64,000 nucleotides of DNA from Octopus vulgaris (lineage: Eukaryota): positions 25,110,001 through 25,174,000 of the forward strand of contig OX597841.1 of the NCBI GenBank assembly GCA_951406725.2, in the 5' to 3' direction. How positions within the stretch are numbered: the stretch's first letter is position 1; every line of letters begins with the position of its first letter. The translations under genes and the position numbers were made by a program. Below, one piece after another: positions 12,755-52,659 of the stretch. The notes below the pieces were generated by a model that was given only the letters and a program-made list of their open reading frames with translations, did no database searches and was not told where the DNA came from.

Positions 12755-12947
<193 letters not shown>

Positions 12948-12962
12948 TAATAACAATTAATA

Positions 12963-13009
<47 letters not shown>

Positions 13010-13065
13010 AACAGCATAGAAAAATACCTTAGAAATGAGAACCCAGGTTCGAAACTTCCCCAAGT

Positions 13066-13107
13066 CACCTGATGAAGGCTGGAGGGTATATCAGCCGAAA
13101 CGTTGTG
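13066..13107 (+). ncRNA. Minimal type I hammerhead ribozyme-like motif
   Basis: CAC-CTGATGA-A-GGCTG(loop)CAGCC-GAAA-CG-TT-GTG: canonical core, 5-bp stem II, palindromic ACGU stem III. Activity untested. Confidence 0.65.
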
Positions 13108-13540: not shown

Positions 13541-13578
<38 letters not shown>

Positions 13579-13732
13579 TGTGTGTGTGTGTATGTCTGTA
13601 TATGTGTGTATACATACATACATACATAATACATACATACATATATACATACATGCATACATACATACATACATACATACATGCATACATACATAATACA
13701 TACATACATATATACATACATATATACATACA

Positions 13733-13766
<34 letters not shown>

Positions 13767-14628: not shown

Positions 14629-14930
14629 ACATATTACATGTACTATATATATATACATCTACACATAAAATACAAAATACAAAGTTATATCTTGATATCG
14701 CTAGTGATAACAATACTCAAAATATATAACAGACTGGAATTGTTAGCCCGTCTCTTGTAATTTCGATCAATTGTATCTTGTCCTCTCTCTTGTATAGAAG
14801 TTTGTCTCCTCTGTGTTTAGCCCCTTGTGGGTACGTCCCAGATCTAAATGTAAAAACGAAATATTTCCACTTTGCAAGTTCGAGTCAGACACAGACAGAC
14901 ACACATTCTCAGTTTTATATATATAAAGAT

Positions 14931-15871: not shown

Positions 15872-15879
<8 letters not shown>
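14931..15879 (+). mobile_element. 5'-truncated CR1/L2-group LINE, duplicate of 6825-7773
   Basis: The 304-aa ORF translations differ at one residue (R/Q). Confidence 0.9.
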
Positions 15880-15913
<34 letters not shown>

Positions 15914-15947
15914 CTATACACACACACATATATATATATATACTATA

Positions 15948-16003
<56 letters not shown>

Positions 16004-16126
16004 TATTGTATATATATATATATTTATATATAACTATACATATATATGTATATATATAAACATATATATCTGTACATATATATAACTATATATATATATA
16101 TATATATACATATATATATAAATCTG

Positions 16127-16191
<65 letters not shown>

Positions 16192-16779
16192 TATATATAT
16201 ACACATATATATGTATATATAAATACATATATATGTATAGTTATATATATATATATGCACATATATATGTATATATATATATACATACATATATATGTAT
16301 AGTTATATACATATACAGATATATACATATATATACTTATATACACATATATATTATATATGTACACATATATATGTATATATATATATAATATATATAT
16401 ATATATATAGTTATATACATATACAGATATATACATATATACACATATATAATATAATATATATTTGTGTATATATGTATACGTATATATATATGTATAT
16501 GTATATAACTATATATATATATATGTATGTATGTATGTATGTATATATATACATATATATATATATTCATATAAATATATATATATACACACATGTATAT
16601 ATATACATATATACACATATATTATATATATATATTTTTTTTCTAGTTTCAGCTCAGAGCTGCAGCCATGCTGAGGCACCGCCGTTTGTGCTACACAGTT
16701 ATTACGAAGAACCTTCCCTAATATGTGGCACTTGGTGAAAAATGGTGTTTGAATTAGCTACTCTCATTTGCACCGCTTG

Positions 16780-16895
<116 letters not shown>

Positions 16896-17596
16896 ATATA
16901 AGTTCTGAGTTGAAATATATAAGTTGCGAGTTCAAATTCCACTGAGGTTGACATTACCGTTCATCCTTTTGGGGTAGATAAATTAACTACCAGTTGTGTA
17001 CTGAGCTCAATCTAATCGACTGGCCCCATTCTCCCAAAATTTCGGTCGTTGTGCCTAGAGTAGAAATCAATATATTTTAAATGGAATTAATTTTCTTAGC
17101 CGTCTATTAGTTGTTGTATGCTTGATGTTTAACAAGATTTCACTTCCTGCAGCTAATGTTCACTGTAACCTCTATACACAATGATTATTTTAACCAAATA
17201 AAAAACGGAAAAAACTAAAGCGTAATAATGACTTGGGCATCATATAAATTAAAGGAGGAAATACTTGAGCGTTCATGCAGTTTTCTCTCCCCCCATCTCT
17301 CTCTCCCTCTCTCTCTCTCTCTTTTCTCTTTCTCTCTCACACACTCCGTAAAGTTTGTGAAGGAGAGTCACATACAAATTGAGAATTATACCAGAGTAAC
17401 GGGCTACCCTCATTGTTGTACGTACATGCTAAATCACACTCGCAAAGCGTACACACATCGTTGCTAGAGTTTCATTGAAATAACATTACCTATAGGGAAT
17501 TAACCAACTCTGAAGAAAGAGAGCCATTCGAAAAGCACTACATAATCTCATTAATTCAAATACAAAGACACACGGATTTAAAATTCAAGTACTTAC

Positions 17597-18540
17597 TTCA
17601 AACCATTAATGAAAAATTTTTCAGTAATATAATCTCTACAATTGGAATTTTCGAATGCCAAATAAAATTTGTATTCCTTTTTCAACATCTCAAAGCAACT
17701 ATATTTATCCTCTCTTTTGCAAACTTTTGTACCACATCTACCATAAATATCCACCTGGATATATTTTCCGAGCTCCTTAGCATAACCCATTCGATTGTTG
17801 GTTGGACCACAGTTCGATACGAACCAAGCAACCTTCTTTGTTTTTCCCGCTGCATAATTTTGAAATTGTACTTTTTGTCTTACTGACTTGTTAAAATATC
17901 GAAATTTTCCGTAAGGATATACAATCGTACTGTCCTGCCGATAATTAATCGTCCAGTTGATTTTGTTTCCCACGTGTTTCACTGATGGGTTGAAAACAGG
18001 ACACTCTTGTGTCATATAAATCCATATTTGGTTCGTGTGGGTTGGTTTCTGTGATAGTCCCACTTTCTCATAAAAGAAAATAGCATCTACACTATTTTGC
18101 ATTGCTTTGTTGTTTGTGACTAAACATTCATTAACTGGACATTTATATTCCAGGAAACTCGTTTGATTTTCCTTCAATGGTTGCAGATATCTTAAACTGT
18201 ATATTAACAACGTTTTAAACTTTGGTTTATTTGGCTTTAACTTTACATTTCGATCAGAATCTGATTGATTTTGGTGCGTATTCCGTGTATAATTTTCCCA
18301 TCTTTCCTCTCCTGGTGGGACATATTTCATTTGAGCTTCGATACGATCGTTTTCAGGCTGATTACCTGGAAACAATCGAGAGGAATTCCTTCTGTAGGAA
18401 ACATACTGCTTAGTTGTTGAAGTCCAATTCCAAATGTCTTGTAGTTTCTTGAGATTATATTCAAATTGAGAAATATAAAAACAAATGCGTACTACTATGA
18501 ATATGACAAAGACTGAAAACATCTTGCGGTAGGTGTCCAT
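17597..18540 (-). CDS. GT10 alpha-1,3-fucosyltransferase, large 5' coding exon, copy 2
   Basis: Same motifs as copy 1; donor GTAAGT at 17591-17596; candidate acceptor TTTTATGATTTTATAG with the exon starting at 18652. Confidence 0.9.
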
Positions 18541-19147
18541 TCCTTATTTGGTGTGATGTGAACAGTTTCAAGTCGTTATTCATGTAGCAGTAAGTATTTC
18601 TTGAATGAGGCAGTGAACTAGTTAGGTAAAAGGATTGATCAGTAACAAAGATCTATAAAATCATAAAACAAACAATTATTGTCTACTTTATCAGGAAAAA
18701 CTAGCCAATAGACTGTTGACAAATTGTTAGATCAAGAGACAAATATCAGCTAAAAGACACCTTAATGCCTTCGATAATTAAATTCAATAGCACATTGATA
18801 CACACACACACACACACACACACACACCACACATATGCAGGCACGCACATACACACTCATACACACACGCACGCACGCGTATCCCCCAAGCACATACACT
18901 AAATACATATATACATATATGATATGTTAAATATGCATATGAGGGACACATGTGAACAAGTAGGGTAACAGTTGTTGATAACATCCATTCACTTGCAAAA
19001 CGTCTGAATATTTACTGTCAGTCTTATGGCGAGTATATGTGTGGAGTCGTATGCGTTATCCTTTCCAATGGAACTCTCACTTATGAACAAGTCAACACAT
19101 GTTTGTATAGCACTATCAACCCTAGCTAAATCATATATTTATATATA

Positions 19148-19194
<47 letters not shown>

Positions 19195-19203
19195 GTATAT
19201 ATG

Positions 19204-19275
<72 letters not shown>

Positions 19276-20900
19276 AGGGATGACCTCTACGTGGACATTG
19301 ATATGCTAGAAGTAGATCCGCTATGGTCTTACCACTAAGAAAGCATTGTTCTCAACAAAATCTTAGCAAACTCCAAAAGGTAAGCGAACAAGACAAACGA
19401 AAAGAATCAAAAGAATTGGGGCGTTAATCCTCTAAAACACAATAACATGCAATAAACATTAAGCATTTTAAAATAAACATAACACTGAGGATTTTCAACC
19501 TCTTGTCACTATTCCTCCCCAACATCGCTTGTGTCCGTATACTCTGCCATCACCCTCATCTCATTCAAGACCAAGGCGGGATCCGAGCCGGCGTCGCCTG
19601 GCCACAAGCGACATTTCTCATTGAGTCCCTGCAGCCTATATACATCACGGGCAACGTTATGACCTCCACAACTATCTGCAGAGGCCATTCGGGATCCTGT
19701 GTCAAGGTTAAAGGTACTCCCTTATGGTGCTTTTCCACCACCTCTTCTACCTCACCACCTCTGTAGAAGAAGACCAATAGTTCATCTTCCCATTGGTTCG
19801 AGGTAGTCAATTCTACCGTTGGTGACACAATTCCCTCCAACTGTGTCTCTTCTGCTGGTAGCAGAACCCCTACCGGCAAGGTTCCACGACATTCCGGTGC
19901 TATGTCACCGACTGCCGGCAATGTCCCGTTTCTCTTCCTCTTCCTCTTTTTTCTCAAATGAAGGAGGGTGCGTCTCCTCCGTGACTAGGATATTCGCCTC
20001 CCCTCCCTCATCCCAAGGATCCTTCGGTGAGCACCCATTGTTGCTCACCTTCCTCTTGCGGCCCTTCTTTGAGGAGTCCTCCGTCTCCTCGTCCGCCTTA
20101 GTTCCTTCTTCTACAGAGGTCTCAATCAACTGCTCCAGTACCTTGCTTTGTTCCTGAGGAGTTTTTCTTTATATGGCCAGGCTCTAGGTACCTATGACAC
20201 CTGGTGGGGGGTGGGAACGACCCTCAAGAATCAAGGCCATTTTCAAAAAATCTGGCATAAACAGATTCATGACTGATTGGGTCCACAGGGTCAAAACAGC
20301 TTTTGACACAACCCAATCAGCCGTAGGAAGAATTTTTACATTGAGGAGTCATATCCTTCAATCTGGAAAAAAAGAGTTGGCAGGTCAGCTTATTAGATGT
20401 GGTGGAAGCACTCCGTCGGTTACGACGACGAGGGTTCCGGTTGATCCGAATCAACGGAACAGCCTGCTCGTGAAATTAACGTGTAAGTGGCTGAGCACTC
20501 CTCAGACACGTGTACCCTTAACGTAGTTCTCGGGGATATTCAGCGTGACACAGAGAGTGACAAGGCCGGCCCTTTGAAATACAGGTACAACAGAAACAGG
20601 AAGTAAGAGTGAGAGGAAGTTGTGGTGAAAGAGTACAGCAGGGATCACCACCATCCCCTGCCGGAGCCTCGTGGAGCTTTAGGTGTTTTCACTCAATAAA
20701 CACTCACAACGCCCGGTCTGGGAATCGAAACTGCGATCCTATGACCGCGAGTCCGCTGCCCTAACCACCGGGCCATTGCGCCTCCACTTATTTGATGTAT
20801 AGTATTAACAAGCTAAAATGTAACCTAGGACAGTTATAACTGGCTCTCCAAAAGAGGCCTCAAAACTCCCCAAGATTCCGAGTTCGATTCCAGGTAGTGA

Positions 20901-21062
<162 letters not shown>

Positions 21063-21077
21063 TAATAACAATTAATA

Positions 21078-21127
<50 letters not shown>

Positions 21128-21183
21128 AACAGCATAGAAAAATACCTTAGAAATGAGAACCCAGGTTCGAAACTTCCCCAAGT

Positions 21184-21225
21184 CACCTGATGAAGGCTGG
21201 AGGGTATATCAGCCGAAACGTTGTG
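21184..21225 (+). ncRNA. Minimal hammerhead-like motif, duplicate of 13066-13107
   Basis: Identical sequence inside the 8-kb duplication. Confidence 0.6.
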
Positions 21226-21653
21226 TTAACAACAAACAAGATGTGGACAGATATCCATCAAATGTAAATAAAGTAAATAATGTACATAATTCCTCATCTC
21301 TTAAATATAGAACACCATTAAGTTCTGGGTTTGATTTCTCAAACTAAACCCTTCAAAGTAACAAAGTGAGCGGTGCCCCAGTATGGCAGCAATCCAGTGA
21401 CTGAAACAAGCAAAAGATAAAAGATACACATTCTGCATGGAGAGCCATTGAATGGAGTGCCTGTATTTCAAAATGTAATCCCTTTTGTCAGATACTCAGT
21501 GTCACACTGGATGTGACTGGGGATTTTATTACGGGTATTAAGGGTATCTGTGGTAATACTCAACGACTTAACACCATGAAAGACTGGAATATCCATCATT
21601 GGAACCTATGGATGGATGACCTAATTACCGTGTCTGTGTGTGGTAGTTGTGTG

Positions 21654-21697
<44 letters not shown>

Positions 21698-21953
21698 TGT
21701 GTGTGTGTGTGTGTATGTCTGTATATGTGTGTATACATACATACATACATAATACATACATACATATATACATACATGCATACATACATAATACATACAT
21801 ACATATATACATACATAAATACATACACACATACATACATAATACATACATACATATATATATACATACATACATACATAATACATACATAGATACATAC
21901 ATACATCCATACATCCATCCATGCATACATACATACATAAATACATACATACA

Positions 21954-21985
<32 letters not shown>

Positions 21986-23567
21986 CATAAATACATACAT
22001 ACATTCTTCAATTTCTGCAATTTCAACCAATCACTGACGTCTATTGAGGTAAAAAAAAACATTCTGTGCCGTATGAATATGTCCCTCGTTTAAGAAACAG
22101 ACTGGGTTTATTTACATTTGTGAAGGAAAAAAGATACCCTTCCCCCCACCCCTAATCCTAACTAACCCTAACCCTAAAACAGATTGAAATGCAATAGATC
22201 GATACTAGGGTCATAATTACGGGTGACAATTTCATATGACACCGCTAGAAAAACTGCCGTTCAAACCGAAAAGATCCCACTTTTCTTTCCAAATCAACCG
22301 CCAGTGAGTGGAGGGGTGGGAGTGTCTTGATTAAAGAAGTAGAAGTCTTTCTTCAATCCCTCCAGCCCCGCCCACCACAAACTCTTTCCGCCTTGCCACT
22401 AGACAGAGGAAGAGTCCCTGCCCTGCGCTTGGTTCATTCATCCAACATTCAACAACAGTTGTTCCACATAAATCCACCAATCAGCACCGCACCAGCACGT
22501 GCAATATGCTTCCGTTATAGACGGAAGTATATATGCAATATACTTCCGTTCAGGAAGCACACGCAACATGTTTCCTGTACGCCTCGAGCGGCCCTGCTTG
22601 GTGTTACTTCAGTGTCTGGAGAGTTTATCTCGAACCAGCAGTGCTATCGTTAGTAGCACCGTCAGATCAAGGATTTCTGGAGATTATCCGCGCAATTTCT
22701 GGCCCGAACGTCCTCCGAAACAGACCAGCTAATTCGTTCTCTTCGACATCCAGCGTCGTTCAGAAAATGTCATCTTGCTCATTTCTGCTGTGACCACCAC
22801 TACAGAAATAAGACGAACGTCGGAGAATAAACATTATGTACAGACTGGTACACTGCAGTATCATAGAGCTTAACAAATGGTACAATAAGGTCGTCACGAA
22901 GAGAGAGAAGTGAGATTGGTGAAACAAGAGATGAGTTCCACTCCTGCCAGCATCATCAGTACTTAGAAACTCATTTACTGACCTGCAAACCATAAGACTG
23001 CTGGATCACAGCCCACGTTGCTTACACTATTAGCACACCGGGCGAAATACCTAGAGCAGGGATGTCAAACTCAATCGCAAAGGAGGTGGGGGCAAAGATC
23101 AAATCACACTTAAGGTTGCAGGTCGAACTGGACAAATATTACTTAAGCAGTGGAAAACTAAAGCTTTTAGGAGTCGCGACCCACAGATGGGGGTCGTGAA
23201 CGGAATCTTAGTGGGTCGCAAAAAGTTATAAAATTACGCATTAGCTTTGGTTAACTGCTGTCTATCGAGATAGTTCAAGACTTATGTTTTCAATACCAGA
23301 CTTGTTGTTTTATCAAGCAGCAGGCTTTTTCACGAACTTAACAAATCAGAGGTTGTCATTTTCTCAAGTTATTTATTCGTACGTAATCGTAAAAAGGAAA
23401 GGTCTGTTTTTACCTATTTATAGAGAACTTTAACTAGGCGAAGTATAACACTGATTGAGCCGATAACAGTTACTACTTCAAGGTTTTGTATTAGTGTTAG
23501 TATTTACACATAGGGTATAGAGACGTTGAAACAGTTATAAAACGTTTTGTTTCACATTTAATATAAA

Positions 23568-31086: not shown

Positions 31087-32415
31087 TTATTTTTCAAAAT
31101 AAAAGAAAGCAAAAGGTTGACGTCCAGGAATAATTCCAAAAACCATCAAAGAATTTTCTGAAACATCCAAACCAAGAACTTCAAAGACTTCATTATCATC
31201 CCCTCTGGGGAGTAAATATTTTGGATTATCTTTTAATATCAAGATATCATTATCTTCAGATGTTTCCTCTTCAATATGTCGAGGAATTTCGTAAATATTG
31301 TTTTCTATATCTGTTATATAAACACATTCACCAATTATGGTTAGACGAGGTCTTGGAATATAATATTCCAGACCATAAAATCCTCTTCCTCCTATTCTCA
31401 TCTTCCTCACCAAAGACTTTTCCCTGAACCATTCCACAATACACAAAACTGCCCAACTTCCAAACTCCTCCTTCATCTCCCCCCTCAAAAAAAAAACATC
31501 ACCAAAAGATGTAACTCCCACATCATCCACTACCGAATCTCCCTCAAACCTTCCCAATCTCCTCATTTTCCCATGACACACTTCATCTTTACATTTCCCA
31601 TCTTTGATATCAACCACATCCACATCCACATAATAAGAGTCAAAGGTGTTGGGGTCATCGCAATAATAGTAAACTTTGTTGTTCTCCCTTATTCTTCGGT
31701 ATTTCTTGTGTCTCTGTTCTTGAGTTATGTCTCTAATATAATGACCACCACACATGAGTTGAACGTCGTTGTATTTATAAAGCCTGTTGTAGTATTTCTC
31801 AGTTGTGATGCTTCTTAAACGACAGAGATCCCTGTTGAAGACCCTCATTTCTCTCCCAAAGGCGACAATGAAACATTCCTCTGTCCACCAACATATGTCC
31901 AGTGGCGGTCGTTGTTGTTGTTCATGTTGAAGCATATCCACTGTTGTTGTTGTTGTTGTTCTGATTAATGTGACACTTTCTCGAAATATCAACACACTCA
32001 CATTCTCATCTAACTTAATTAGTTTACTGTTCAGGTCCCTAATGTCCCACAAATCATAATCAACAGGTTCCTCGAATGCAGGAATGGAAAAAGGGACCAT
32101 TGCTGTCCTATATGGAAGTCTCCTCACTGATATTTCATCAATTCCTGAATTATTAATCTCCGCTATGTAATTACCACATCTCACCTTTAATCTACCTTTG
32201 CTAATTATTTCACCTGATTTACCTCTTCTTCTTCCTCCATCTCCATCTCCTCCTCTGTATTCCAATTTATTAATTAATTTATTACTGAATATTTCCTTGT
32301 TCGTTTCAGATGTAATGGAAGGGAAATGAAGACCAGAATCAAGATTTAATAACGACACAGATTCCAGAATGTTCACTTGGTCCCCATCAATCTTTATGCA
32401 ATGACATCCAATCAA
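31087..32415 (-). CDS. C-terminal segment of the multi-propeller protein (442 aa)
   Basis: Long non-repetitive ORF in AT-rich DNA; blade-like LTIIGECVYITDIENNIYEI. Confidence 0.65.
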   Translation of the reverse strand: MIGCHCIKIDGDQVNILESVSLLNLDSGLHFPSITSETNKEIFSNKLINKLEYRGGDGDGGRRRGKSGEIISKGRLKVRCGNYIAEINNSGIDEISVRRLPYRTAMVPFSIPAFEEPVDYDLWDIRDLNSKLIKLDENVSVLIFRESVTLIRTTTTTTVDMLQHEQQQRPPLDICWWTEECFIVAFGREMRVFNRDLCRLRSITTEKYYNRLYKYNDVQLMCGGHYIRDITQEQRHKKYRRIRENNKVYYYCDDPNTFDSYYVDVDVVDIKDGKCKDEVCHGKMRRLGRFEGDSVVDDVGVTSFGDVFFLRGEMKEEFGSWAVLCIVEWFREKSLVRKMRIGGRGFYGLEYYIPRPRLTIIGECVYITDIENNIYEIPRHIEEETSEDNDILILKDNPKYLLPRGDDNEVFEVLGLDVSENSLMVFGIIPGRQPFAFFYFEK

Positions 32416-32416
32416 T

Positions 32417-33181
32417 TCAATATGTACACACCAGTAAATACCCCACTTTTCTCCATATTACACCATAAGGGATGAGACTTGGCCAAACTTTAGATGTCTG
32501 CAAATCTCCATTCAGTTGAAATATTTCTTTTCTTTTAGTAACCGTGGCCATTATGTGTGATTCTTGTGTAAAACACACACCACCAACTAAACTTGCAACA
32601 TTTCTGTGACATAGCAACTGCCCGTCTTCATCGAATATTTTAACAATTCCATTATTGACTTTTTCACACACAACTGTCTTTCCTTCATCAGAGACATCAA
32701 AATCTTTTACTTGAACAAGACAGTCATTTGTTTGTAAACGAACAACCGGGAAGCTGTCTCGATTCACCATAAACAACCCTTCAACATACAATTCATTCCC
32801 TCTCATTACCCTCCTGGGGCTTCCAACAAACCTTAGTCCTTTACAGTCTATACTGACGAAAAATACTTCTTCTTTATAAATTCTTTCATTCAAGAATATT
32901 CTCTTGTATTCCCCATTCTGGGTCAAACACAAAATGTTTCGATATCTAGGTGAACCTAAACATTTCTCCCACTGACCATAAATGTACAAAAAACTGTCAT
33001 CAGTTGTCATCCTGTCATCAATACCAAAATAATAATCCATGTAGTGTCTGACTGAATGTAAATATTGACCATCACTGTCGAAGAAAATGATGAATCTTTT
33101 GTTGAAGACAATGATGACATTTTCAGAAGTAACTTTAATATCCTGGATGTCATCATAATAATTTCCATATTCGTCTCTCAT
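32417..33181 (-). CDS. Segment of the multi-propeller protein (254 aa)
   Basis: DIKVTSENVIIVF..FFDSDGQYL and DFDVSDEGKTVVCE..VKIFDEDGQLL are NHL-like blades. Confidence 0.65.
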   Translation of the reverse strand: MRDEYGNYYDDIQDIKVTSENVIIVFNKRFIIFFDSDGQYLHSVRHYMDYYFGIDDRMTTDDSFLYIYGQWEKCLGSPRYRNILCLTQNGEYKRIFLNERIYKEEVFFVSIDCKGLRFVGSPRRVMRGNELYVEGLFMVNRDSFPVVRLQTNDCLVQVKDFDVSDEGKTVVCEKVNNGIVKIFDEDGQLLCHRNVASLVGGVCFTQESHIMATVTKRKEIFQLNGDLQTSKVWPSLIPYGVIWRKVGYLLVCTY

Positions 33182-33293
33182 TATTAATGGTTCAGGACTG
33201 TTTAAATGCTTTGATGTGTTGATTCTGTTGCTTGTATTTACTTGATGTATCTGATATGTATGTGATGTTGTAACAAGTATAAAGTGTTATAAA

Positions 33294-35039
33294 CTAGTAG
33301 GTTAAATGTAAGCCAATTGCCTTCCTTGTGTCTCTCTCGGAAGACAACATTTCACTGACAGAAATGTTTCTGGAAAATACATCTACCAGGTCGATATAAT
33401 AATTAAGTTGATTATTTGTAACGAGATCATTAACCAACAAATTATGATCGTTTATAGCAAACATACGGCTTCTGTCTATCAGATAAACAAACATATGGTC
33501 AATAGATCCACCTTGGAGATTGAGGGGACGTTTCGCTTGAGACATTAAAACAGTGGGGACCATCTGACGACCACCACGACCACCACCACCTATTCTAGTG
33601 TTGAACTGAAAAGCTTTTCCCCTAGTAACAATTAATAGCTTTTCTATTTTCTTGTCTATTGATAATGATTTCACAAAAACAGGGATATTAATTGTCTTAA
33701 TTAATTCAACTTGATTATAATAATTGATGGCTAAAATGTCTAAATGTGATGGTTTATCACAATAACAAACAATTTCACCTTCACCCATCTTACACACCCG
33801 TACATAAGGCTGCCTTAATGATACACTTCTCACTGTCTTTGATAGGTTTCCGATGACCCTTAATTGTTTCTGTAGGGGTAATGTGATACCTATACGATTA
33901 GAATCCCATCGACATATATCTGTGGCTGTAGACGGCAGAGAAAATCTGGACAGAATGTCTCCTTCCTGAGAAATGTATAACAAGCAATCATGGTTGATGT
34001 CGGACACCACCAACTGTCCATTTGCAAGATTACATATTTCGCCAATGAGAAGTTTTTGGTCATTCTCCTTTTCTTTGAGTCGTAGATTTAGATTTCTGAT
34101 ATGAGGATTTTTTATGGGTAAACAACAGCCAGACGACCGGTCTTGATACTTGTAAAGAAGAACCCTGTTGAGTTGAGTGTCCGGGACATAAAGAATTCCT
34201 TGGAAAACAGCAATGTCAGGGTGAACAGGGAAAGGCAGTTCCCACTGCCATTTAATTTCTCCATATATATCATAACATCTGAAAATAGAGTGTCTCTTGA
34301 AGAGGACATAGAAATAAACATTATCAGAGTAGATGTGATGAGGGTTGCCATAGAATGGAAGGTATTTTTGAAAAAGTTCTTCACCACATGTGGAATAAAA
34401 TACCATTTTATTTTCGCTTCCATCTACGACTACAAAATTAATTGGAGTTGCAGCAATGCTGACATTATAATGTCCCAGAGAAATTCTTTCTATAATCTCA
34501 ACTTTATCTTCGTTGATCAAGAGGATATGGACCTCGCTTTTGTTTTCAGTGGTGGTCACAGCTAAACTCTTATTTGATACAATATGACATATTTTCATGT
34601 AACCAGTTTGCACCTTTATTAAAGGGCCTTTTCTTAGTTCAGGACAGGTGATATACTGAAACCCTTTCATTCCACGATAAAATACCAGGAATCTGTTTGC
34701 ATTTATTCTACAACAGAAAGAAGGAAGCTCAACGAAAACTGAATTATTTTGGCTAATTATTTCCCCTTTATCAGTGAATAATTTAGCTTTCTTGTTTTTG
34801 TAAATTATTAATATAGAAGATGTAGACATAGGTAGAATATTTGTAATGTTGTAGCAATCCTCAATATCAATATAGTCTTTTAAACTGGGGGTATGTAGCT
34901 GGTGGTGGTATGACAGTTTGGGCCAAAAATCTTTATTTATTTGAATACCATGTGGTTTGCCGCAATAATCTGTTACCAAAATGGTATCTTTACCAAAAGA
35001 AATAGAGTGACATTTCCTGCCAATGTCCCTCCTTGTCAC
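33294..35039 (-). CDS. Central segment of the multi-propeller protein (581 aa)
   Basis: Two propeller-like modules, e.g. ICNLANGQLVVSDINHDCLLYISQEG. Confidence 0.7.
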   Translation of the reverse strand: MTRRDIGRKCHSISFGKDTILVTDYCGKPHGIQINKDFWPKLSYHHQLHTPSLKDYIDIEDCYNITNILPMSTSSILIIYKNKKAKLFTDKGEIISQNNSVFVELPSFCCRINANRFLVFYRGMKGFQYITCPELRKGPLIKVQTGYMKICHIVSNKSLAVTTTENKSEVHILLINEDKVEIIERISLGHYNVSIAATPINFVVVDGSENKMVFYSTCGEELFQKYLPFYGNPHHIYSDNVYFYVLFKRHSIFRCYDIYGEIKWQWELPFPVHPDIAVFQGILYVPDTQLNRVLLYKYQDRSSGCCLPIKNPHIRNLNLRLKEKENDQKLLIGEICNLANGQLVVSDINHDCLLYISQEGDILSRFSLPSTATDICRWDSNRIGITLPLQKQLRVIGNLSKTVRSVSLRQPYVRVCKMGEGEIVCYCDKPSHLDILAINYYNQVELIKTINIPVFVKSLSIDKKIEKLLIVTRGKAFQFNTRIGGGGRGGRQMVPTVLMSQAKRPLNLQGGSIDHMFVYLIDRSRMFAINDHNLLVNDLVTNNQLNYYIDLVDVFSRNISVSEMLSSERDTRKAIGLHLTY

Positions 35040-35058
35040 ACCACCTTTAGCTGAAATC

Positions 35059-35865
35059 CTAAATTATTTGTCCCTGGAGGACATAGAAATAATTTTGGTA
35101 GAGAGAGATTTTACTTGGGAGGTGCAGAGAATGGGTCTCTACCTCCCATAACTGTTGGCCATCCAGTTTGTAACAGATTACTCTGTTGATGCTGGCGAAT
35201 GTAATTACAAGTATATTCTGGACCCCTACAGCAATATCTGTAGGGGTTTCTTTGGTAATAAATTGATAGTTAATGGTATTATCCTCCCAATCAAATTGGT
35301 AAACTATCTTACAAAACATTTCTACACCTATAAGTGTAGAATCTTCCAAGTAACTCACCATATGTAACGCCAACTGTATCCTTTTGATCTTAAAGGTTTT
35401 AGGGCTGATAATAAGAATCATTTCTTGGAAGGGGAGGGTTGCCAGAACCATGTCTTCACTGATTCTGGTGAAACTGGTCACAGAAGATGGACAATGGACA
35501 TCATTTCTGTCACTGTCTCTTGTTATTAAACTTATTGTCTTATAATGGTGGGAATATGTCATCACTCCCTCCTCTATGATGACAATATTGGATATTGTGC
35601 TTTCCTGAAATTCTTCTCCAGATTCCTCGATATTTGCTTCTCTGGTCACATCTGGCTGAAGAGGCCGACATTTTGTGGTTATTTTTGGTGGATCAATGGT
35701 TTTGTGTTTGTCTTGTAGAATATTTCTTTGTAAATAGTGTTCCAGGAACAATTCTAATTTTTCCAAACATAAGAAATTCTTGATTGTAATCGTTCTTTTT
35801 TTAATGCCTTTCATCAGAATTTCTATTCTCTGTGTAAAATCTTTTAGAAAAGTATTTTTTTCCAT
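35059..35865 (-). CDS. Coiled-coil end plus first propeller module (268 aa)
   Basis: Helical K/E/L-rich start, then PTDIAVGVQNILVITFASINRVICYKLDGQQLW. Confidence 0.65.
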   Translation of the reverse strand: MEKNTFLKDFTQRIEILMKGIKKRTITIKNFLCLEKLELFLEHYLQRNILQDKHKTIDPPKITTKCRPLQPDVTREANIEESGEEFQESTISNIVIIEEGVMTYSHHYKTISLITRDSDRNDVHCPSSVTSFTRISEDMVLATLPFQEMILIISPKTFKIKRIQLALHMVSYLEDSTLIGVEMFCKIVYQFDWEDNTINYQFITKETPTDIAVGVQNILVITFASINRVICYKLDGQQLWEVETHSLHLPSKISLYQNYFYVLQGQII

Positions 35866-36907
35866 TCATATTCTTTTTAAAAAAAGTACATATTTCTTTC
35901 CGAGAATTTATCAACAAATTAATTTTGTCCTCGTAGGCATTGAATCTTGTATAAAATATATGTTTGTCAAAACTATTTCGTCTTCTCATTATTTCCATCT
36001 TTTTATGGTCTCCTTTATGTCTTTTTTGTTTTGTTGTTGGCTGAGATGAAGCCCGTTTCTCGGACATTTCTATCCTTGAACCGTCATCTCTCTCATATTT
36101 ACCCCTTTTATAGTCAACTCCTTCTTCATCCCATTTTGGTGTTGAGTAACTTAAAGCCTTTTTCTGAGGTGTAAATTTTGCTAAAGTATTTTCTCTTGGG
36201 TCTTCCATAGTGAATATGTAAAGAAATATAAGGAAAGCATTTAGCTTTGTGAAAATATTAAAGTTTCAGGGAGATGATGTTTATTTCATTATTTGAAAAA
36301 CACAAACAAAACATTTATGTATTTCTGTCAGTGAATTAATCTTGTCTAATTAATATTTAAACAACTTATTACAATCTATTCTAAGATGTATTGATAAGTT
36401 TCATTAATTACATGGAGTCTAAATATTAGAAATGATTATATTCACTGGAAATGATATTTGCTCTCAACATCACAAAGTAATAGTCATGTGTGGCTTTATT
36501 TATTTAACGATAATTAGTCAAAGAGATTCCCCTGCTCCAAAAGCACTCAATAACGAAACACACTAAGCTGTAGAGAAAATTAACTTTAATTGGTGTACGT
36601 GTGATATTATGTCCCAGTTAACATGGGACAATTAGCAAAACATCCACAAATCTACAAATCTACACTTTTAAAAAAAATACACCCATCACTATTCTATTTC
36701 TCAACCAGGCTGATAATTCCACAGACATCTCCAAGAATATTTCTATATTTACCAAATTATAACATAGATTATTCCTTCAAATACAATATTTAAATGTAAT
36801 TTAGAAAATTATATTAAAAATATAATCTTTTAAATATTAATAGGATGTTTAACTTTTATAATGTCAGAATACAATTTACGAAGATGAAATACTAAAATTA
36901 TTTTTAT

Positions 36908-38012
36908 AATAATAATAATAATAATGAAAGTATTGTATACAGTGCTCAGGTGCACCACAACTTGTCAGAAAGTGAGTATAAAGTATATGCAGTAATGTAC
37001 AAATGTCTGGAAAGCGAACAATGCATGAGTCAGATACATGCTTGTGTGTGTATGGAGAGGAGAAAATCAGGTGTAGTGTTGGCGAATCTCAGAAAGCATG
37101 GAAGTTCTGAAGGATGCAGTGCTCCGACAGCTAGCAACTGATGCCGGCAGTTTGTTCCATGCTTCAGCAACTCTCAGCGTGAAAAAATGTTTCCTAAATT
37201 CATGGGATCTGTGCTGTTTTCTGACTTTGTAAATATGTCCACGGGTGTTAGATGGGTGGAGTTTGAAAAGGTGCTCAGAGTTATTGTTTGTAAGATGGTT
37301 AATAATTTTATGGGTGTCTGCCAAGTCAGCTGCCAGACGTCGGAGTTTCAATGTGTCCATGCCCAGGGAAGTAAGGCGTTCAGAATATGGCAAATGCCTG
37401 ATGGAGGGTATTCTTTTGGTTGCACGTCGCTGAACGGCTTCCAGACGATTGATATCCTGGGCAAGATAGGGGTTCCAGACCGGTGATGCAAATTCCAGGT
37501 GAGGTCTTACCATAGCTATATAAAGCTACAGATAGATAGTCGGAGAGCGGCTCACAAAGGATTTGGTGAGTGATGCCAAGACACCCTCAGCTTTCTTGAC
37601 AATTTTAGCGATGTGTTTTGTCCAACGCAAATCACTGTCGACAATAACACCCAGGTCACGTTCACTTGAAGGTCTTTTTGAGATTAGTGTTGTGGAAGGA
37701 GTAGGTGGACGCTGGGTTTCTCCTCCCAAAATGCATGGTGGTACATTTGTCCACAGCCAGCTTGAGTTGCCAGTCCATGATCCACTGCTGCATTGTGTCC
37801 AGGTCTGCTTACAATAGAGATCTATAGTGTACAGGTTCTGACCTCTTTATTTCGAGGTACAGCTTGATGTCATCTGCATATTTCAGCACTGTGGCATTCT
37901 TTAAGTTGGCATCTATGTCATTAACATATGCAACAAATAAAAGGGGGCCAAGAACAGATCCCTGTGGTACACCAGATGTCATCTCATAGGGCAAAGAGTG
38001 CTGTCCTAGAAC
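36908..38012 (-). mobile_element. 5'-truncated CR1-group LINE (second family)
   Basis: SGVPQGSVLGPLLF, KYADDIKLY, ERDLGVIVD, VRPHLEFASPVWNP, FFTLRVAEAWNKLP; (ATT)n tail. Confidence 0.9.
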
Positions 38013-38385
38013 CTTGTCATAGGTATGTATCTTGGTTTAAAAGTATGTGGCTGTTGTAATGTATAGGTATGTGTGTGTATATGTTGGTGTGTTGTAGTAT
38101 ATGTTAGCCAGATTACGTCGACATGCCTATCTCAGATTACCACAAACTATGTGAATGACACCCTCTCCCCACCTCCCATCCAGTTATATATTCTTTCTTT
38201 CTCTCTTTACACCATCTCCAACATTACCACCACCACCACCTCTCCATGCATTTCCATTCAAGTGTTTCATGTTTCTGAACCAATCATATTCACTTATTTT
38301 GCCTTCTTTCTTTATATGGAAAAATCCCATCCTCAATATTTAACTTTGTATACATACATATATAGCTACACACACATACATGTAC

Positions 38386-38477
<92 letters not shown>

Positions 38478-38582
38478 ACACGTACCTACAAACACACCCA
38501 TATACATACACACATACAGGCATACCTTTTCCAATAAGTTGTAGTGACCCTAATATCGTATACAATAAGCTCATTATAGTTA

Positions 38583-38800
38583 TTATTATTATCATTATTA
38601 AGAATCGTTAGCATACTGGGCGAAATGCTTAGTGGTATTTCACTCATAGCTACGTTCCAAGTTCAAATTCCACCAAGGTCGTCTTTGGTTTCATCTGCCC
38701 AGGGTCAATAAAACAAGTAGCATTTGAGTACTGAGGCCGATGTAGTCAACCGTCCGCTTCCCTACGAAATGTCAGGCCTTGTGCCTTTTGTAGAAAGGAC
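38583..38800 (+). mobile_element. Degenerate SINE (copy ~62582-62790)
   Basis: GTTAGCA..GGGCGAAATGCTTAG..GTTCAAATTCC head, similar to 55623-55828. Confidence 0.65.
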
Positions 38801-39129
38801 TATTGTTTATGCAGTGAATGACATCATTGTTAATGCATCGGACATTGAATGTATGCGCGAAGCAGGGAAGGAGAATGCTTTAGAGTAGCTAACCCTCATA
38901 GAAATAACAGACAAATCTCCTTCTAGTCAGATTCTATTGTTATAAGAATGTATATATGTATGTATTGAGTCAATAACAAAGACCTCTGTATGGCTGTTAA
39001 ATCACGAGAATTCTCCTATTTTCAAGTGAGCTTTGTGTACTAAAGATCTTTCAAGTTTGATATTTTCTAAATCCTTAAGTTCCACACAATTGGCAACAAT
39101 GGCTGCATCTCCTTTCATTTCTGAAGAAA

Positions 39130-40740
39130 GCATTCCAACAGTCAAGGAAGAGCCCGTCAAGAGCTTGGGACGAGTATACGCTGGAACATTGTCAGAGAGA
39201 AGTCGTGGGATTGAAATTATGAAACAGGCCGAGGCTGGGTTATCAGCGATTGATGATTCGAAGTTACCAGGTAAATATAAAATTTGGTGCTTGCAGTTCG
39301 GTTTGTACCCGCGACTTGCGTGGCCACTTTAAATATACGAAGTAGCATTGTCACATGTTGAAAGGATTGAACAAAAATGTAATGTGTTCATTAGAAAGTG
39401 GCTAGGTCTACCTCGTATGTTGAACAGCTCAGCTCTTTATCGTAAAAGAGGTTCGTTGCAGCTACCAATAGCATCAATAGTTGAAATATATAAGTTGAGG
39501 AAGATACGGACGGTCATGGTGCTGAGAGAATCGAAGGATATGGAAATCAGGCGTAACCCACTAGAGGTGAAAACGGCCAGGAAGTGGAAAGCAGAAGCAG
39601 AAACTGACAACATCTTGTCTTCTCTTATACACAGAGATATGGTGGGAGCAACGCAGAACCATCGGAAAGGATTTGGTTTTGGCGCAGATCAGTTCAGACC
39701 GTTTGCAAGCATGATCCCGTGTGAACGCAGATCTGTTGTTAGCAACAGCGTCAAAACAAGAGAAGCAGAGAGAAGAGAGCTTCGTTTGATCCGATGTGTT
39801 CATCAAGGTCAGATGACGAGATGGGAAGAACATGTTGTTGAGAGGAAGATAAGTTGGGATGAGATGTGGAAGTGGACGACATCTCGGCTGAGTTTCCTGA
39901 TTCGTTCATCTTATGATGTTTTGCCATCACCTACGAATCTAGTAAGATGGAACGTCTTAGAGAATGACATCTGCAAATGTGGAAAGGTCGGTACACTAAA
40001 ACATAATCTTTCCAACTGTTCATTAGCATTGAACAGGTACACATGGAGGCACAACTTGGTCCTTAAGGTTATCTTCAATGCTATAAAGAACCAAATTCAT
40101 CTCAACAACACTGAGGAAAAATCGTTAAAAGTACCATCAAGAGATTTCATTACCTTCGTGCGACCAGGTCAGCGGATCCGTTTCAAGAAGAAGACCAAGA
40201 AACTTCCTGAGAAAAATGAAAAGTGGAACGGCTATTGGGAGGTAACTGCAGATTTACCTGGGTGCCAGGTTTTCTTTCCCATCCCAGTTTCGAAAAAAAC
40301 AGATTTTTAATGTGGTGTGAAAGAAGATAATATGGACGCCGCTCGGGCTCGAAAATTGAACCGTCATGAAAACCTCCTCGAGGAATGTGAAGACGCAGGC
40401 TGGAAAGCGGAACATTTTCCTATCGAAGTCGGATGTAGAGGGTTTGTAGGACACAGCGTGAGACGACTGTTGTTATCGCTAGGCCTAACTCATCGTAAAG
40501 TCAATACCACCATGACTGATATCCAATCTACAGTGGAGAAGGCTAGCCACTGGATTTGGTTAAAAAGAGACGATGAGCGATGGCTAGAAGTATATTCAGT
40601 TCTTCATAACCAGCTGATCTAGCAAGCGGGGTCTCATATCAGTGAGGGGGCCGGTGCACATTGATGCCGTCGAGAGGTAGGCCCCGAAACGGCGCGCATT
40701 CTCTCCTGATGACCCCATACACTTGCTAGCTTCCGGTATA
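39130..40740 (+). mobile_element. HERO/NeSL-like (R2 superfamily) non-LTR retrotransposon, 3' half, decayed
   Basis: EPVKSLGR, LPGKYKIWCLQFGLYPRLAWPL*IYE, RKWLGLPR, YDVLPSPTNL, zinc knuckle CKCGKVGTLKHNLSNC, RYTWRHN and RLE motif PIEVGCRGF. Confidence 0.85.
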
Positions 40741-41506: not shown

Positions 41507-41639
41507 GAGCAGCTGAACCCAGCAGGCATCACTACTAACCGTCCGTTCAAGGGATTATTTACCTAAATTCAGTGGAATACATTACTGGTTTTCAAAAATA
41601 GAAATATTACATTTCTAAGTGTCTTGAACAGAGCCTACA

Positions 41640-44273
41640 GCAGCGGTGTCACATACTACGGACCGACAGAAAAGAAAGGAGTCATGGAGGAGTTTCTATG
41701 TACATCTGTGAGGACCTCACACCCCAGGTCTTTTTGTCGTACTCAAATTCGGTGTGTGACACACTAATTGTACATACAAGGCAACTTGGGGTAGTTATAT
41801 GTGCTACACATCGCCCTCCAGATGCCCCAAGCCATGTAGGCAAGTTTGAAGACTGCCTTATAAAAATAGAAGAAGTTCTAGTCACATTAGAACAACACAT
41901 AAGTGTACTTCTTATGGGAGACTTCAATCTACCCAATGTCAGATGGCCCGAGGGCCTTTCTCTCCCAGGAATGACACGATGTGAACGAGGACAGGCGAGG
42001 TCCCTCCTGAACCTCATCAACACTCTGTACATGGAGCAAGTAATACTCCAACCAACCAGGGCAGGTAACATACTGGATCTCTGCTTCACAAATAATATGG
42101 ATCTCATCCATAATGTGAAAGTGACGCCGACACTACTCTCGGATCACAACATGCTAGAGCTGAACATGTACGGTCCAAAGGAAAGCATGGACATGCAGCC
42201 TACAAGAAACTCTCATAATCTTTCCAGCTTGAACTTCCATAAGGCAAACTGGAAACAAATTGAGAAAGAGATCTTCAAACAAAACTGGCCTGAATGTCTA
42301 TCCTCGCCAGACATCGACATGAAACTTCAACAATTCATGTCTGTAATGCAAGCCATATGCTACAAATGTGTCCCAGAGAGAAAGGCCACTGTACACAAGA
42401 GCAAAATCCCCAGAGAGATGAAAATTCTAATGAGACAGCGTACAAAAGTTTCAAATCGCCTAAACAAACAAATTGAAAGCAGTGAAATGTCCCGCCTGAA
42501 AATAAAACTGCTGGAAATTGAAAAATGTCTGCAACTCTGCCATGAAAAAGAAAGAGTAGACAAAGAAGCCTGGGCTATAGACAACATAAAATCTAACCCC
42601 AGAGCTCTCTACAGGTATGCCAAAGAAACAGCTACGGTGCACTGTAGGATAGGGCCACTCCTTGAAAAGGATGGCACACTCACAGGAAATCCAATGAGGG
42701 TAAGTGAAATACTAAATGAGCAATTCAAGAGTATTTTCACTCCACCCCTAGGGCATTTTCAAGTCAGCAATCCAACTGACTTCTTCACCACTGCAGATAT
42801 AAAATCAGAGGCAGCGATGATTGATTACATCAAAATAAAGGAGGATGATGTAATAAAGGCTATTGATTAAATGAAAACAAACTCAGCTACTGGCCCCGAT
42901 GGATTCCCAGCAATCCTTCTAAAAGTATGTAAGAGAGTCCTAGCAAGACCACTGCAGTTCCTCTTTCAGAGCTTCCTTGCAATTGGCAAACTTCCAAGAA
43001 AACTGAAGGAAGGTAAAATATGCCCTATTCATACAGGAGGTAGCAGAGCGGAGGCCAAGAACTACAGACCTATCTCTCTCACCTCACACATCAGCAAGGT
43101 CATGGAACGAATAGTCAGAAGGAAACTGATCACATTCCTTGAAGAAAATGACTTGCTGCCTGACACCCAACATGGTTTCCGACCAGGAAGAAGCTGCTTA
43201 ACTCAGCTCCTACAACACTATGACTGGGTGCTGAAACGACTGCTCAACCACTCAAATGTGGAAGTCATATATCTCGACTTTGCAAAGGCCTTTGATAAAG
43301 TCGATCATGGAAAGATATGTCACAAACTGCGTGATCTTGGCATAGTTGGAAAATTGGGAGAATGGCTTCATGACTTTCTGAAGGATATAAGTCAGGTGGT
43401 AGTAGCCAATGGGGCCACTTCCATTAACATGCAAATAGTGAGCGGTGTTCCACAAGGCACTGTTCTGGGACCACTACTGTTCACAATGGCTCTCTCAGAC
43501 ATGCCCTCAGCCACGCAGAGAGCCACGATCACAAGTTATGCAGATGATACAAAAGTTTCACAGGCAATACAGAACCCTGAAGACGCTAAGCACCTGCAAT
43601 GTGAGCTGGACAAAATATACAAGTGGGCTGAAAAGAATAGCATGCAGTTCAATGCTGAAAAGTTTCAAGATTTATACTATCAGCATGCAAAACTAAATGC
43701 AATACCCAAAAAATACACTGGACCTGGAGGGATTGCAATCCCAGAGGCACAATCAGTGCGAGATATCTGGGTATTTACATGAGTGATGATGCAACTTTTC
43801 ATGTGCATGTTGCTAAATTGGCAATGAAATGTAGGCGGCTGACTGGATGGATTCTTAGAAACTTTAGAACAAGAGATCAGGAAACCATGATGGTCCTCTG
43901 GAGGACACTTGTCCTAAGTCACTTTGACTATTGCTCTCAGCTATGGTCACCATCCAGTGTCAAGTTAATCACAGAACTTGAGGCGATCCAACGAAGGTGC
44001 ACGAAGAAGATAGCCTCTGTGCAGCATATAAGCTATTGGGAAAGACTCAAGAGACTGAGACTCTATTCCTTAGAGCGTAGGCAAGAAAGATATGCTACAA
44101 TATACATCTGGAAGATTCTAGAAGGACTTGTCCCAAACTTTGGCATCGAGAGTTACACAAATGCCAGAACTGGGCGCCACTGCATAGTGCCAAGGACTCC
44201 AAATTTGCCATCAAGATGTAGGACAAGATACTGTGATAGCCTGGTTTTCCGAGGCCCACAGCTCTTCAATATC
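41640..44273 (+). mobile_element. CR1/L2-group LINE ORF2 (APE endonuclease plus RT), disrupted
   Basis: MGDFNLP, GNILDLCFTN, SDH; YRPISLTS, YLDFAKAFDKV, SGVPQGTVLGPLLF, YADD. In-frame TAA at 42868-42870 and a frameshift at ~43775. Confidence 0.95.
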
Positions 44274-45335
44274 CACACATGCACACATACATGCATACAT
44301 GCAATTATGTGGGTTGGCTTTGTTTCGGGCGTGCGTCGGTGCGTGTGTGTGTGTGTGCCTGTGGATTCGCATGCGCCCGCACCGGAAGAGTTTTTTTTCC
44401 ATCAATCTTTCAGTTGTGAAGTGTGTGCTTGCATGCATATATATACACACATAAAAACATATAAACACACATATAAACCCCTACATTTGTACACACACGC
44501 ACATACATACATACATTCACTCCCACAAACGTACACACACACATTTACATATATATACAATACACGCACACACACATACACACGTACAAACACACACTAA
44601 TTCACATACACACAACATATACCAACACGCGCACGCACACATACACATAGTACACACATATAAGCACAGACACACACATACATACGCACACCAAAACATA
44701 CGCACACATGCGCAGGCACACGCGCGGAAAAAACACACAAACCCCGGATACTCGCATATACATCCATATACGCTTACACACACACACACATACAAACGCA
44801 CACAAACACGCACACACAACTACACGCACATACATACACACACACACACACACACAAATGAACCCACACATACAACCCATACACACGGCACACAACCGTA
44901 CATACACGCACACACATACATACACGCACACAATTATACATACATATATATACACACACGCACGTACAAGCACACACGCACGTACAAGCACACACGCGCA
45001 CATACACTAAGTTATGCACAGTTACTCGCCACACACCCAAACTCCACGCATACACACAAAAAACACACACGTACACACACACATACTACAAACAGAACAC
45101 ACACACGATACATATACGTGCACGCACACACACATACCTCCCTGATTTTGACCTGCTATTGTACCCACAAACCACTCCTTAATTCTTACTACTAGCCTGC
45201 TACCCAGTTGTTCGCCATACACACACACACACACACGCACACACACACGCACACAAACACACATTTGTCATCATCGCACACTTTCTTCACCTTTGATATA
45301 ACTCTCCTTGTTTTTAAAAACATTTTCTTCTACTT

Positions 45336-51144: not shown

Positions 51145-52099
51145 TTCAAACCAGTAGTAAAGAATTTTTCAGAAATATATTCTCTACAATTGGAATTTTT
51201 TCGAATGCCAAATAAAATTTGTATTCCTTTTTTAACATCTCAAAGCAACTATATTTATCCTCTCTTTTGCAAACTTTTGTACCACATCCACCGTAAATAT
51301 CCACCTGGATATATTTTCCGAGCTCCTTAGCATAACCCATTCGATTGTTGCTTGGACGACAGTTCGATACGAACCAAGCAACCTTCTTTGTTTTTCCCGC
51401 TGCATAATTTTGAAGTTGTACTTTTTGTCTTACTGACTTGTTAAAATATCGAAATTTCTCGTAAGGATTTACAATCGTACTGTCCTGCCGATAAGTAATC
51501 GTCCAGTTGATTTTATTTCCCAGGTGTTTCACTGATGGGTTGAAAACAGCAGACTCATGTGTATCAAGAATCCATATTTGGTTCCGGTAGGTTGGTTTCT
51601 GTGATAGTCCCACTTTCTTAAAAAAGAAAATAGCATCTACAATATCTTTCTTTTCTTTGTTGTGTGTGACTAAACATTCATTAACTGGACATTTATATTC
51701 CAGGAAAGTCGTTTGATTTTCCTTCAATGGTTGCAGCCATGGTAGATTTTTGAAACTGTATATTAACAACGTTTTAAACTTTGGTCTATTTGGCTTTAAC
51801 TTTACATTTCGATCAGAATCTGACTGATTTTGGTGCGTATTCCGTTCATAATTTTCCCATTTTTCCTCTCTTGGTAGGACATATTTCATTTGAGCTTCGA
51901 TACGATCGTTTTCACTCTGATTACCTGGAAACAATTGAGAGGAATTCCTTCTGTAGGAAACATACTGCTCAGCTGTTGGAGTCCAATTCCAAATGTTTTG
52001 TTGGTTCTTGAGATTGTATTCAAATTGAGAAATATAAAAAGAAATGCATACTACTATGAATATGACAAAGATGAAAAATATCTTGCGGTAGGTGTCCAT
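51145..52099 (-). pseudogene. GT10 fucosyltransferase large 5' exon, copy 3, with a +2 frameshift in the catalytic motif
   Basis: The T-run at 51196-51201 has 6 nt versus 4 in copies 1 and 2. The corrected frame reads FENSNCREYISEKFFTTGLK; donor GTAAGT at 51139-51144. Confidence 0.8.
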
Positions 52100-52659
52100 T
52101 CCTTATTTGGTGTGATGTGAACAGTTTCATGTCGTTATTCATGTAGCAGTAAGTATTTATTGATTGAGGCAGTGAACTAGTTAGGTAAAAGGATTGATCA
52201 GTAACAAAGATCTATAAAATCATAAAACAAACAACTGTTGTCTTCTTTATGAGGAAAAACGAGCCAATAGACAGTCGACAAATTGTTCGATCAAGAGAAA
52301 AATATCAGCTAAAACACACCTCAACGCCTTCGACAATTAAATTCAGAAGCACAATGATACACGCCTCGTGCACACAACACACACACACACACACATGCAT
52401 GCGCGCACATGCAGGCACGCACATACACTAAATACATATATACATATATGATATGTAAATATGCATATGAAGAGACTCATGCGAACACGTAGGTCAATAG
52501 TTGCAAAATGTCTGAATATTTACTGTCAGGCTTATGGCGAGCATGTGATTGAAGTCGTATCCGTTACCCTTTCCAATGGAACTCTCACTTATGAACAAGT
52601 CAACACATGTTTGTATAGCACTATCAACCCTAGCTAAATCATATATTTATATATATAAC

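Follow-up and report, generated by a model that had tools for sequence, protein, structure and literature searches.

A 64,000-nucleotide (nt) stretch of the Octopus vulgaris genome (contig OX597841.1, positions 25,110,001–25,174,000; hereafter the window) carries on its minus strand a coding-like sequence of about 5.1 kb, noticed in an initial annotation made from the letters alone, which runs from an ATG at 36208 to a TAA at 31087 and is split over five open reading frame (ORF) pieces. We find that this sequence belongs to a very large, apparently undescribed octopus gene family, whose intact proteins consist of a variable helical N-terminus followed by six propeller units (P1–P6; five whole, one partial). 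Two of these units, P4 and P6, are under strong diversifying selection, which is concentrated on their predicted top faces. We put at roughly 0.55 the probability that the family is a diversified intracellular pathogen-recognition repertoire engaged in an arms race. The window copy itself is valuable just as a pointer to its family.

Architecture and descent of the family

The fold was predicted by running AlphaFold on two halves of an intact paralogue, L022, with alignments of 36 rows, which gave predicted local distance difference test (pLDDT) scores of 67.6 and 70.1. In the prediction, residues 1–68 are disordered, residues 69–161 form helices and the remainder is organised in nearly all-beta units, where VIA-align recognises single six-bladed propellers at about residues 200–430, 435–697, 701–965 and 967–1261. 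The best VIA matches are to the NHL domain of Brat (Z 21.6, root-mean-square deviation (rmsd) 3.6, 252 residues aligned; Z 23.8, rmsd 3.3, 254 residues aligned), and the first nine rows of a further fold-search listing are all TRIM-NHL domains. P5 (residues 1262–1478), which is partial, and P6 (residues 1490–1812), which is whole, were delineated from DSSP strand counts and profile alignment. Altogether, the units are predicted to be six-bladed propellers of the NHL type, from modelled structure for P1–P4 and from profiles and DSSP for P6 and the partial P5; AlphaFold, VIA-align and HHalign concur on six units where five to six propellers in series had been proposed. The units are homologous to one another (probability 91–96 for the best pairs), pairs with P5, or the pair P1–P6, being often weak.

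Pfam searches with the five window pieces and 10 intact copies returned nothing above the curated cut-offs: no RING, B-box, NACHT or NB-ARC domain and no transposase, reverse transcriptase or integrase. The NHL repeat itself stays under its cut-off because the repeats are too diverged (best score 18.5 bits versus 20, in P0053), and the N-terminal helices and propellers account for the whole chain. Across 27 copies, the first 200 residues contain no RING or B-box motif (a statement about the ORF only), no long hydrophobic N-terminus is present and no transmembrane segment is clear (maximum 19-residue hydropathy, 1.35–1.82), so that the lack of RING, B-box and transmembrane segment first noted on the window copy holds in intact copies. 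In type-B copies, an in-frame stop precedes the ATG by 6 codons; the O. sinensis models P0027, P0029, P0030 and P0034, which are database predictions, begin at the same methionine, and no upstream exon was located. Other searches point in the same direction as the fold: a PDB sequence search with one ORF gave weak TRIM2 matches alone (E 0.1), PDB profile searches gave weak NHL matches (best E 2e-4), and the whole protein is nearest to molluscan NHL clusters in ESM Atlas (0.93, with a low recognition score; the N-terminus alone, at 0.76, is uninformative). Foldseek, a check suggested at the outset like the AlphaFold run, returned generic multi-propeller matches, none of them end-to-end.

Three lines of comparison bear on the origin of these propellers: (i) all six units align in register to the single propeller of octopus and cuttlefish TRIMs (HHalign probability 92–99); (ii) in a representative search of 1.84 billion sequences, 44 of which passed E 0.001, the next match after family members and one DUF5122 protein is a cuttlefish RING–B-box–NHL protein (E 2e-11, across P4); (iii) this cuttlefish protein, used as query, recovers octopus TRIMs and, weakly, the six-propeller family. 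The suspected derivation from TRIM-NHL proteins is borne out by these alignments and by the Brat match, and the family likely arose from a cephalopod TRIM-NHL gene. In the simplest history, the RING and B-box would have been lost and the propeller duplicated in tandem within one exon, after which the gene itself would have undergone duplication and conversion. The octopus TRIMs L098 and L099 encode RING through NHL in a single open frame, and malin provides a precedent for a TRIM that lost parts of the RING–B-box–coiled-coil module (PMC3503706). By membership, the family is not TRIM, its ORF having neither RING nor B-box, and it is not NLR (the nucleotide-binding, leucine-rich-repeat class); it is NHL-type by fold and descent.

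In several octopus NHL genes of the TRIM or a TRIM-like kind, L094–L100 (on C23, C5, C17, C13, C3 and C6), a single frame encodes most or all of the domains. A 1,838-residue ORF on C21 with RING and B-box, considered as a multi-propeller TRIM, was rejected for want of a propeller match, and no second propeller was found in any other TRIM ORF examined. P0065, P0070 and P0082, long matches of the representative search, were set aside as DUF5122 repeat proteins.

The N-terminus had been described as a coiled coil, a description that was not confirmed: AlphaFold predicts three to four helices at a pLDDT of about 55–67, several types of which occur, 21–35% identical to one another, and HHalign detects no homology to TRIM coiled coils (score 11.7, equalled by 10 of 100 block shuffles). 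A subfamily (L101, L102 and L103, on C31, C4 and C28 at 8.15 Mb) has no N-terminal helices, and its ORF starts after a putative splice acceptor; database models give its members differing upstream exons, one with ankyrin repeats (P0133, P0050, P0056). A C2H2 zinc-finger array lies near and downstream of another member (L050:8365–9900). Database models fused to C2H2 fingers (P0002, P0062, P0135) or ankyrin repeats (P0133) were treated as unverified predictions.

Size of the family, diversification and proposed function

With a 589-residue window piece as query, the genome yielded at least 85 matches (74 of 232 candidates scored), mostly on contig C28, many of them within open frames of around 1,800 codons; 84 matches elsewhere in the genome, at 66–92% identity, place the sequence beyond chance. 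An 87-residue P4 probe matched 124 times among 128 candidates, and merging of these matches left 116 loci (94 on C28, 8 on C27, 7 on C31 and 7 elsewhere, the non-C28 loci being counted by hand); the two window copies do not contain the probe region, hence there are at least 116 others. Dispersed copies lie on C1, C2, C4, C9, C25, C27, C29 and C31. Whole single ORFs of about 1,660–1,940 residues are found at 30 loci, including four distant ones on C2, C9, C25 and C28; 26 of the 30 were checked from ATG to stop (1,761–1,935 residues). Two protein searches gave 53 homologues from 6,500 candidates and 31 from 7,993, in both cases solely from O. vulgaris, O. sinensis, O. bimaculoides and Argonauta hians; cuttlefish, present in the searched collection, gave no multi-propeller match, in searches limited by word and length that leave squid absence unproven. 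In the tree, a few old lineages are common to several species, whereas the vulgaris/sinensis line has undergone a recent burst; the family as a whole shows birth and death of copies, and the 5-kb ORFs stay whole across Octopus species.

Databases annotate the family just as ‘uncharacterized’ or ‘hypothetical’, and no published description was found, including by six locus identifiers, in a search that most subscription papers and all supplements lay outside; the text of PMC10700109 and PMC9068888, as distinct from their supplements, which could list genes, contains neither ‘NHL’ nor ‘propeller’. Contigs from three presumed-RNA runs (three studies) cover the L022 ORF. A pyrimidine tract and an AG stand 7 nt before the ATG in 14 of 26 intact copies, so that the gene is intronless, as initially annotated, in its ORF but putatively not upstream of it. 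In the bin just upstream of this acceptor, two presumed-RNA runs have no cover and a third is thin, the large run X15 continuing; for the family, though for no particular copy, this weakly suggests a spliced transcript.

A single long ORF in high copy number, dispersed over several contigs, might also be a transposon or viral cargo gene, not a host gene. This is the least credible of the explanations considered, since Pfam finds no mobile-element domain, the ORF is homologous to host TRIM-NHL, old members have close counterparts across species and conservation extends from the gene into its flanks, in one case to a 1.1-kb block several kb upstream.

Judged from their sequences, the paralogues are mosaics: in approximately unbiased (AU) tests, each domain rejects every other domain's tree, and L021 and L022 are 42% identical in the N-terminal helices and 97% in P1, the pattern being reversed between L021 and L030. 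The P4 and P6 trees are more alike than the other domain trees, which we do not count as co-evolution because both domains may simply escape homogenisation.

Mean nonsynonymous-to-synonymous rate ratios (dN/dS) over 26 copies are 0.29 for P1, 0.41–0.55 for P2, P3 and P5, and 0.70–0.74 for P4 and P6. Site models M1a and M2a, in our own code, were compared on 22 of the 26 intact copies, four near-duplicates being dropped and columns with more than 20% gaps removed. Twice the log-likelihood difference (2dL) reaches 490 for P4 (omega 6.3 on 14.5% of sites, 36 sites) and 329 for P6 (omega 5.3, 25 sites), versus 0 for P1, 26 for P2, 20 for P3 and 30 for P5. Neutral simulations that allowed for recombination and rate variation, five in all, yielded 2dL values of 8–82; therefore only the P4 and P6 signals count. 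Both persist when columns within four codons of a gap are removed (2dL 190 for P4, 54 for P6) and when a separate tree is used per 60 codons (402 and 220). P1 is under purifying selection.

The top surface of NHL domains is formed by the b–c and d–a loops (PMC4015489). In P4, the selected sites comprise 34 of 128 top positions, 0 of 92 bottom positions and 2 of 54 core positions; the corresponding fractions in P6 are 18/128, 1/95 and 6/62. A tree-free count (pN/pS) over six disjoint pairs, picked as close relatives, gave 2.26 for the P4 top (p 9e-9) and 2.05 for the P6 top (p 3e-5), versus 0.61 for the P4 bottom, 1.00 for the P6 bottom and 0.33–0.38 for P1. Between species, where six of eight pairs were tested, selected sites differ in excess in four of the six (p 1e-9 to 1e-4); some of these four, e.g. 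L069/P0041 and P0043/P0042, did not belong to the test set.

These results also bear on the idea that the family grew neutrally, as a by-product of segmental duplications on a chromosome rich in repeats, its variable loops being unconstrained. Whole ORFs are absent from 86 of the 116 loci, the window is itself built of segmental duplications and recombination alone yields false M2a signals with 2dL up to 82, as would be expected under neutrality; the tree-free top-face ratios above 2, the absence of selected sites from the P4 bottom, the purifying selection on P1 and the integrity of the 5-kb ORFs across Octopus species are not, and this explanation, very improbable in our view, is already largely refuted.

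The character of the selected faces suggests what they bind. By residue counts, the net top-face charge averages +1 to +3 for P1–P3 and ranges from −3 to +10 for P4 and from −13 to +1 for P6 (22 copies); the loops on the selected faces of P4 and P6 are long, indel-rich and composed of aromatic and charged residues. Since these loops are long, indel-rich and charge-variable and the P6 top is net negative, we favour a pathogen protein: the predicted top faces of P4 and P6 would bind a changing protein ligand, most likely from a pathogen, and P1–P3 and P5 would form a conserved scaffold or bind host partners. The absence of a clear transmembrane segment suggests a cytosolic or nuclear location and, because neither a RING nor a NACHT nor any enzyme domain was found, the output would be sequestration or the recruitment of host effectors in trans. 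A more elaborate picture, which we offer tentatively, is that of a germline-encoded, antibody-like intracellular repertoire in octopus, i.e. a chromosome-scale array of six-propeller genes, whose hypervariable P4 and P6 loops, reshuffled by gene conversion and possibly forming one composite site, would detect or restrict intracellular pathogens without NLR or RING.

The initial annotation had suggested an RNA or pathogen sensor, and the diversifying selection on the P4 and P6 top faces lends new support to the idea of a sensor. RNA could still be the ligand if the family bound transcripts of transposons or other selfish elements, in an arms race inside the genome and perhaps in the nucleus or germline. 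The type-A N-termini contain basic clusters, visible in the sequence, which we take to resemble nuclear localisation signals, the top faces of P1–P3 are mildly positive and the C2H2 array lies no more than 1 kb downstream of L050. In addition, RNA-binding NHL domains are the closest structures, and Brat binds RNA on its top surface (PMC4015489). According to the same source, the top surface of NHL domains that bind RNA is positive, and RNA sensing is doubtful for P6, whose top-face residues are net negative; the faces under selection are variable or negative and their loops look more like a protein-binding surface. We regard RNA binding as rather unlikely.

A role in reproduction or in telling self from non-self, through recognition among octopus cells or gametes, is less likely still. 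The fungal HET-D and HET-E proteins share the signature of selection on d–a and b–c loops with exchange among family members (PMC1805685); yet proteins with no clear transmembrane segment and no long hydrophobic N-terminus are unlikely to face outwards, and more than 100 loci make a repertoire, not a single polymorphic locus.

Several points weigh against a pathogen-recognition repertoire or the results on which it is built: (i) the last 550 residues of L022, i.e. P5 and P6, are barely covered by the fold search; (ii) top and bottom labels were taken from DSSP strand order, not from inspected coordinates; (iii) our implementation of the site models uses naive empirical Bayes and merely rescales branch lengths, and the signals of P2, P3 and P5 (2dL 20–30) were discarded as within the range of simulated artefacts; (iv) the top-face excess is not significant in four near-identical pairs, which have few changes; (v) two of the six between-species pairs show no excess at selected sites (L068/P0048, 3/41; L050/P0029, 0/56), hence the arms race does not involve every member; (vi) the 116 loci may include some uncollapsed alleles; (vii) no effector domain was found; and (viii) positive selection by itself does not identify the antagonist.

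The window copy and its surroundings

The window copy is 93–96% identical in nucleotide sequence to the intact paralogues L021 and L022 across the aligned parts. The five occurrences of what had been quoted as a blade signature were all located (35431–35484, 34680–34727, 33876–33929, 32540–32590 and 31858–31908); they correspond to the blade-2 motif of propellers 1, 2, 3, 5 and 6, and hence mark repeats of whole domains, not single blades. The layout of the locus and of the rest of the window is given in the table.

Table. Features of the window, in window coordinates.
Positions	Strand	Feature	Basis
31087..36208	minus	Probable pseudogene copy of the six-propeller family	ORF pieces; nucleotide identity to L021 and L022
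36209..36235	minus	Pyrimidine tract and putative splice acceptor, with AT at 36216	AG in intact type-A copies
36005..36208	minus	Basic N-terminal segment, predicted disordered (L022 residues 1–68)	AlphaFold
35722..36004	minus	Predicted helical region (L022 residues 69–161), three frameshifts inside	AlphaFold, paralogue alignment
34935..35607	minus	Propeller 1, purifying selection in family; one frameshift	Fold match, selection analysis
34140..34892	minus	Propeller 2	Brat NHL, Z 21.6, rmsd 3.6, 252 aligned
33339..34112	minus	Propeller 3	Z up to 19.5; HHalign probability 99 to TRIM NHL
33205..33338		134-nt dispersed repeat, replacing the end of propeller 3 and the first half of propeller 4	Genome search
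32762..33202	minus	Remaining half of propeller 4; top face hypervariable in family	Fold match, selection
32107..32749	minus	Propeller 5, partial: three blades, a low-confidence helical insert and one further blade	AlphaFold, HHalign
31090..32073	minus	Propeller 6; top face hypervariable in family	AlphaFold, HHalign, selection
61124..61981	minus	Second, truncated family fragment	96% identical to 32018–32873, fused to upstream-flank copy
61124..64000		Segmental duplicate of the gene region; gene reduced to an 858-nt fragment joined to the upstream flank	
38011..39122		1.1-kb block; candidate place of promoter or 5' exon	86% match about 7.5–8.6 kb upstream of L022
9460..10410, 17593..18543, 51146..52102	minus	GT10 fucosyltransferase-like exon, three tandem copies	Pfam on two
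6523..14528, 14629..22623		Duplicate flanking an N gap, possibly an assembly duplication	96% identity
337..2777		GC-richer tandem repeat, unit spacings about 270–610 nt	
near 12270..12550 and 20400..20670		Piece of the 337–2777 repeat, inverted	
6624..7586, 14730..15692, 39333..40310, 41602..44600		Non-LTR (long terminal repeat) retrotransposon remnants	RVT_1 confirmed at 42871–43779

The locus had been taken for a functional gene free of transposable elements, and neither view is supported. Relative to the intact paralogues, it contains frameshifts at about 35885 (+1), 35796 (+2), 35762 (+1), 35061 (−2) and 32443 (−2), and paralogue nt 2871–3337 (about 465 nt) are replaced by 134 unrelated bases that belong to a dispersed repeat: of 545 candidates, 39 places besides this one were scored, and all of them match just there, at 81–94%. 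The AT in place of the acceptor AG is unique to the window copy among the loci fetched. At residues invariant in 26 intact copies, it has accumulated 14 private replacements and 0 silent changes. On the other side, several of the indels fall in homopolymers or runs of short repeats, which are prone to assembly errors, the context of the 35885 frameshift recurs in one other locus, and some single frameshifts, in the window and in the family, may be assembly errors. Neither the replacement by a repeat nor the pattern of substitutions is of the assembly-error type; hence, on this comparison with its paralogues, the window copy is very probably a pseudogene that would yield no full protein.

Comparison with known systems and significance

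The octopus expansions discussed in the parts of the literature found are mainly neural (protocadherins, C2H2 zinc fingers and G protein-coupled receptors). The family adds another expansion, which exceeds 100 loci and bears the classic signature of an arms race. Should its role be immune, it is a concrete candidate, open to testing, for a diversified recognition of pathogens by cephalopods, and the NHL propeller, best known for RNA binding, would have been turned into a hypervariable tandem sensor.

The family shares a six-bladed NHL-type propeller, with in-register homology, with TRIM-NHL proteins (Brat, Mei-P26, TRIM2/3/71 and the cephalopod P0067 and L100), the octopus members of which also have long single-exon coding sequences. 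It differs from them in having six propellers in series versus one, an ORF that lacks RING and B-box, helices that are not recognisably a TRIM coiled coil, more than 100 loci and hypervariable top faces. Primate TRIM5 and fish finTRIM proteins have, like the family, a C-terminal binding domain under positive selection and are TRIM-derived, but they keep the RING and B-box and have one B30.2 domain. Several propellers per chain are also found in DDB1, IFT-A, LRP2/4/6 and Apaf-1, which Foldseek retrieved at 7–12% identity and TM-scores of 0.12–0.33; these propellers are of the WD40 or YWTD type and none matches end-to-end. Finally, the HNWD NLRs HET-D and HET-E of Podospora resemble the family in the diversifying selection on d–a and b–c top loops and in exchange (PMC1805685), whereas the family has NHL and not WD40 propellers, has no NACHT or HET effector domain and repeats whole propellers, the blades of which are not homogenised.

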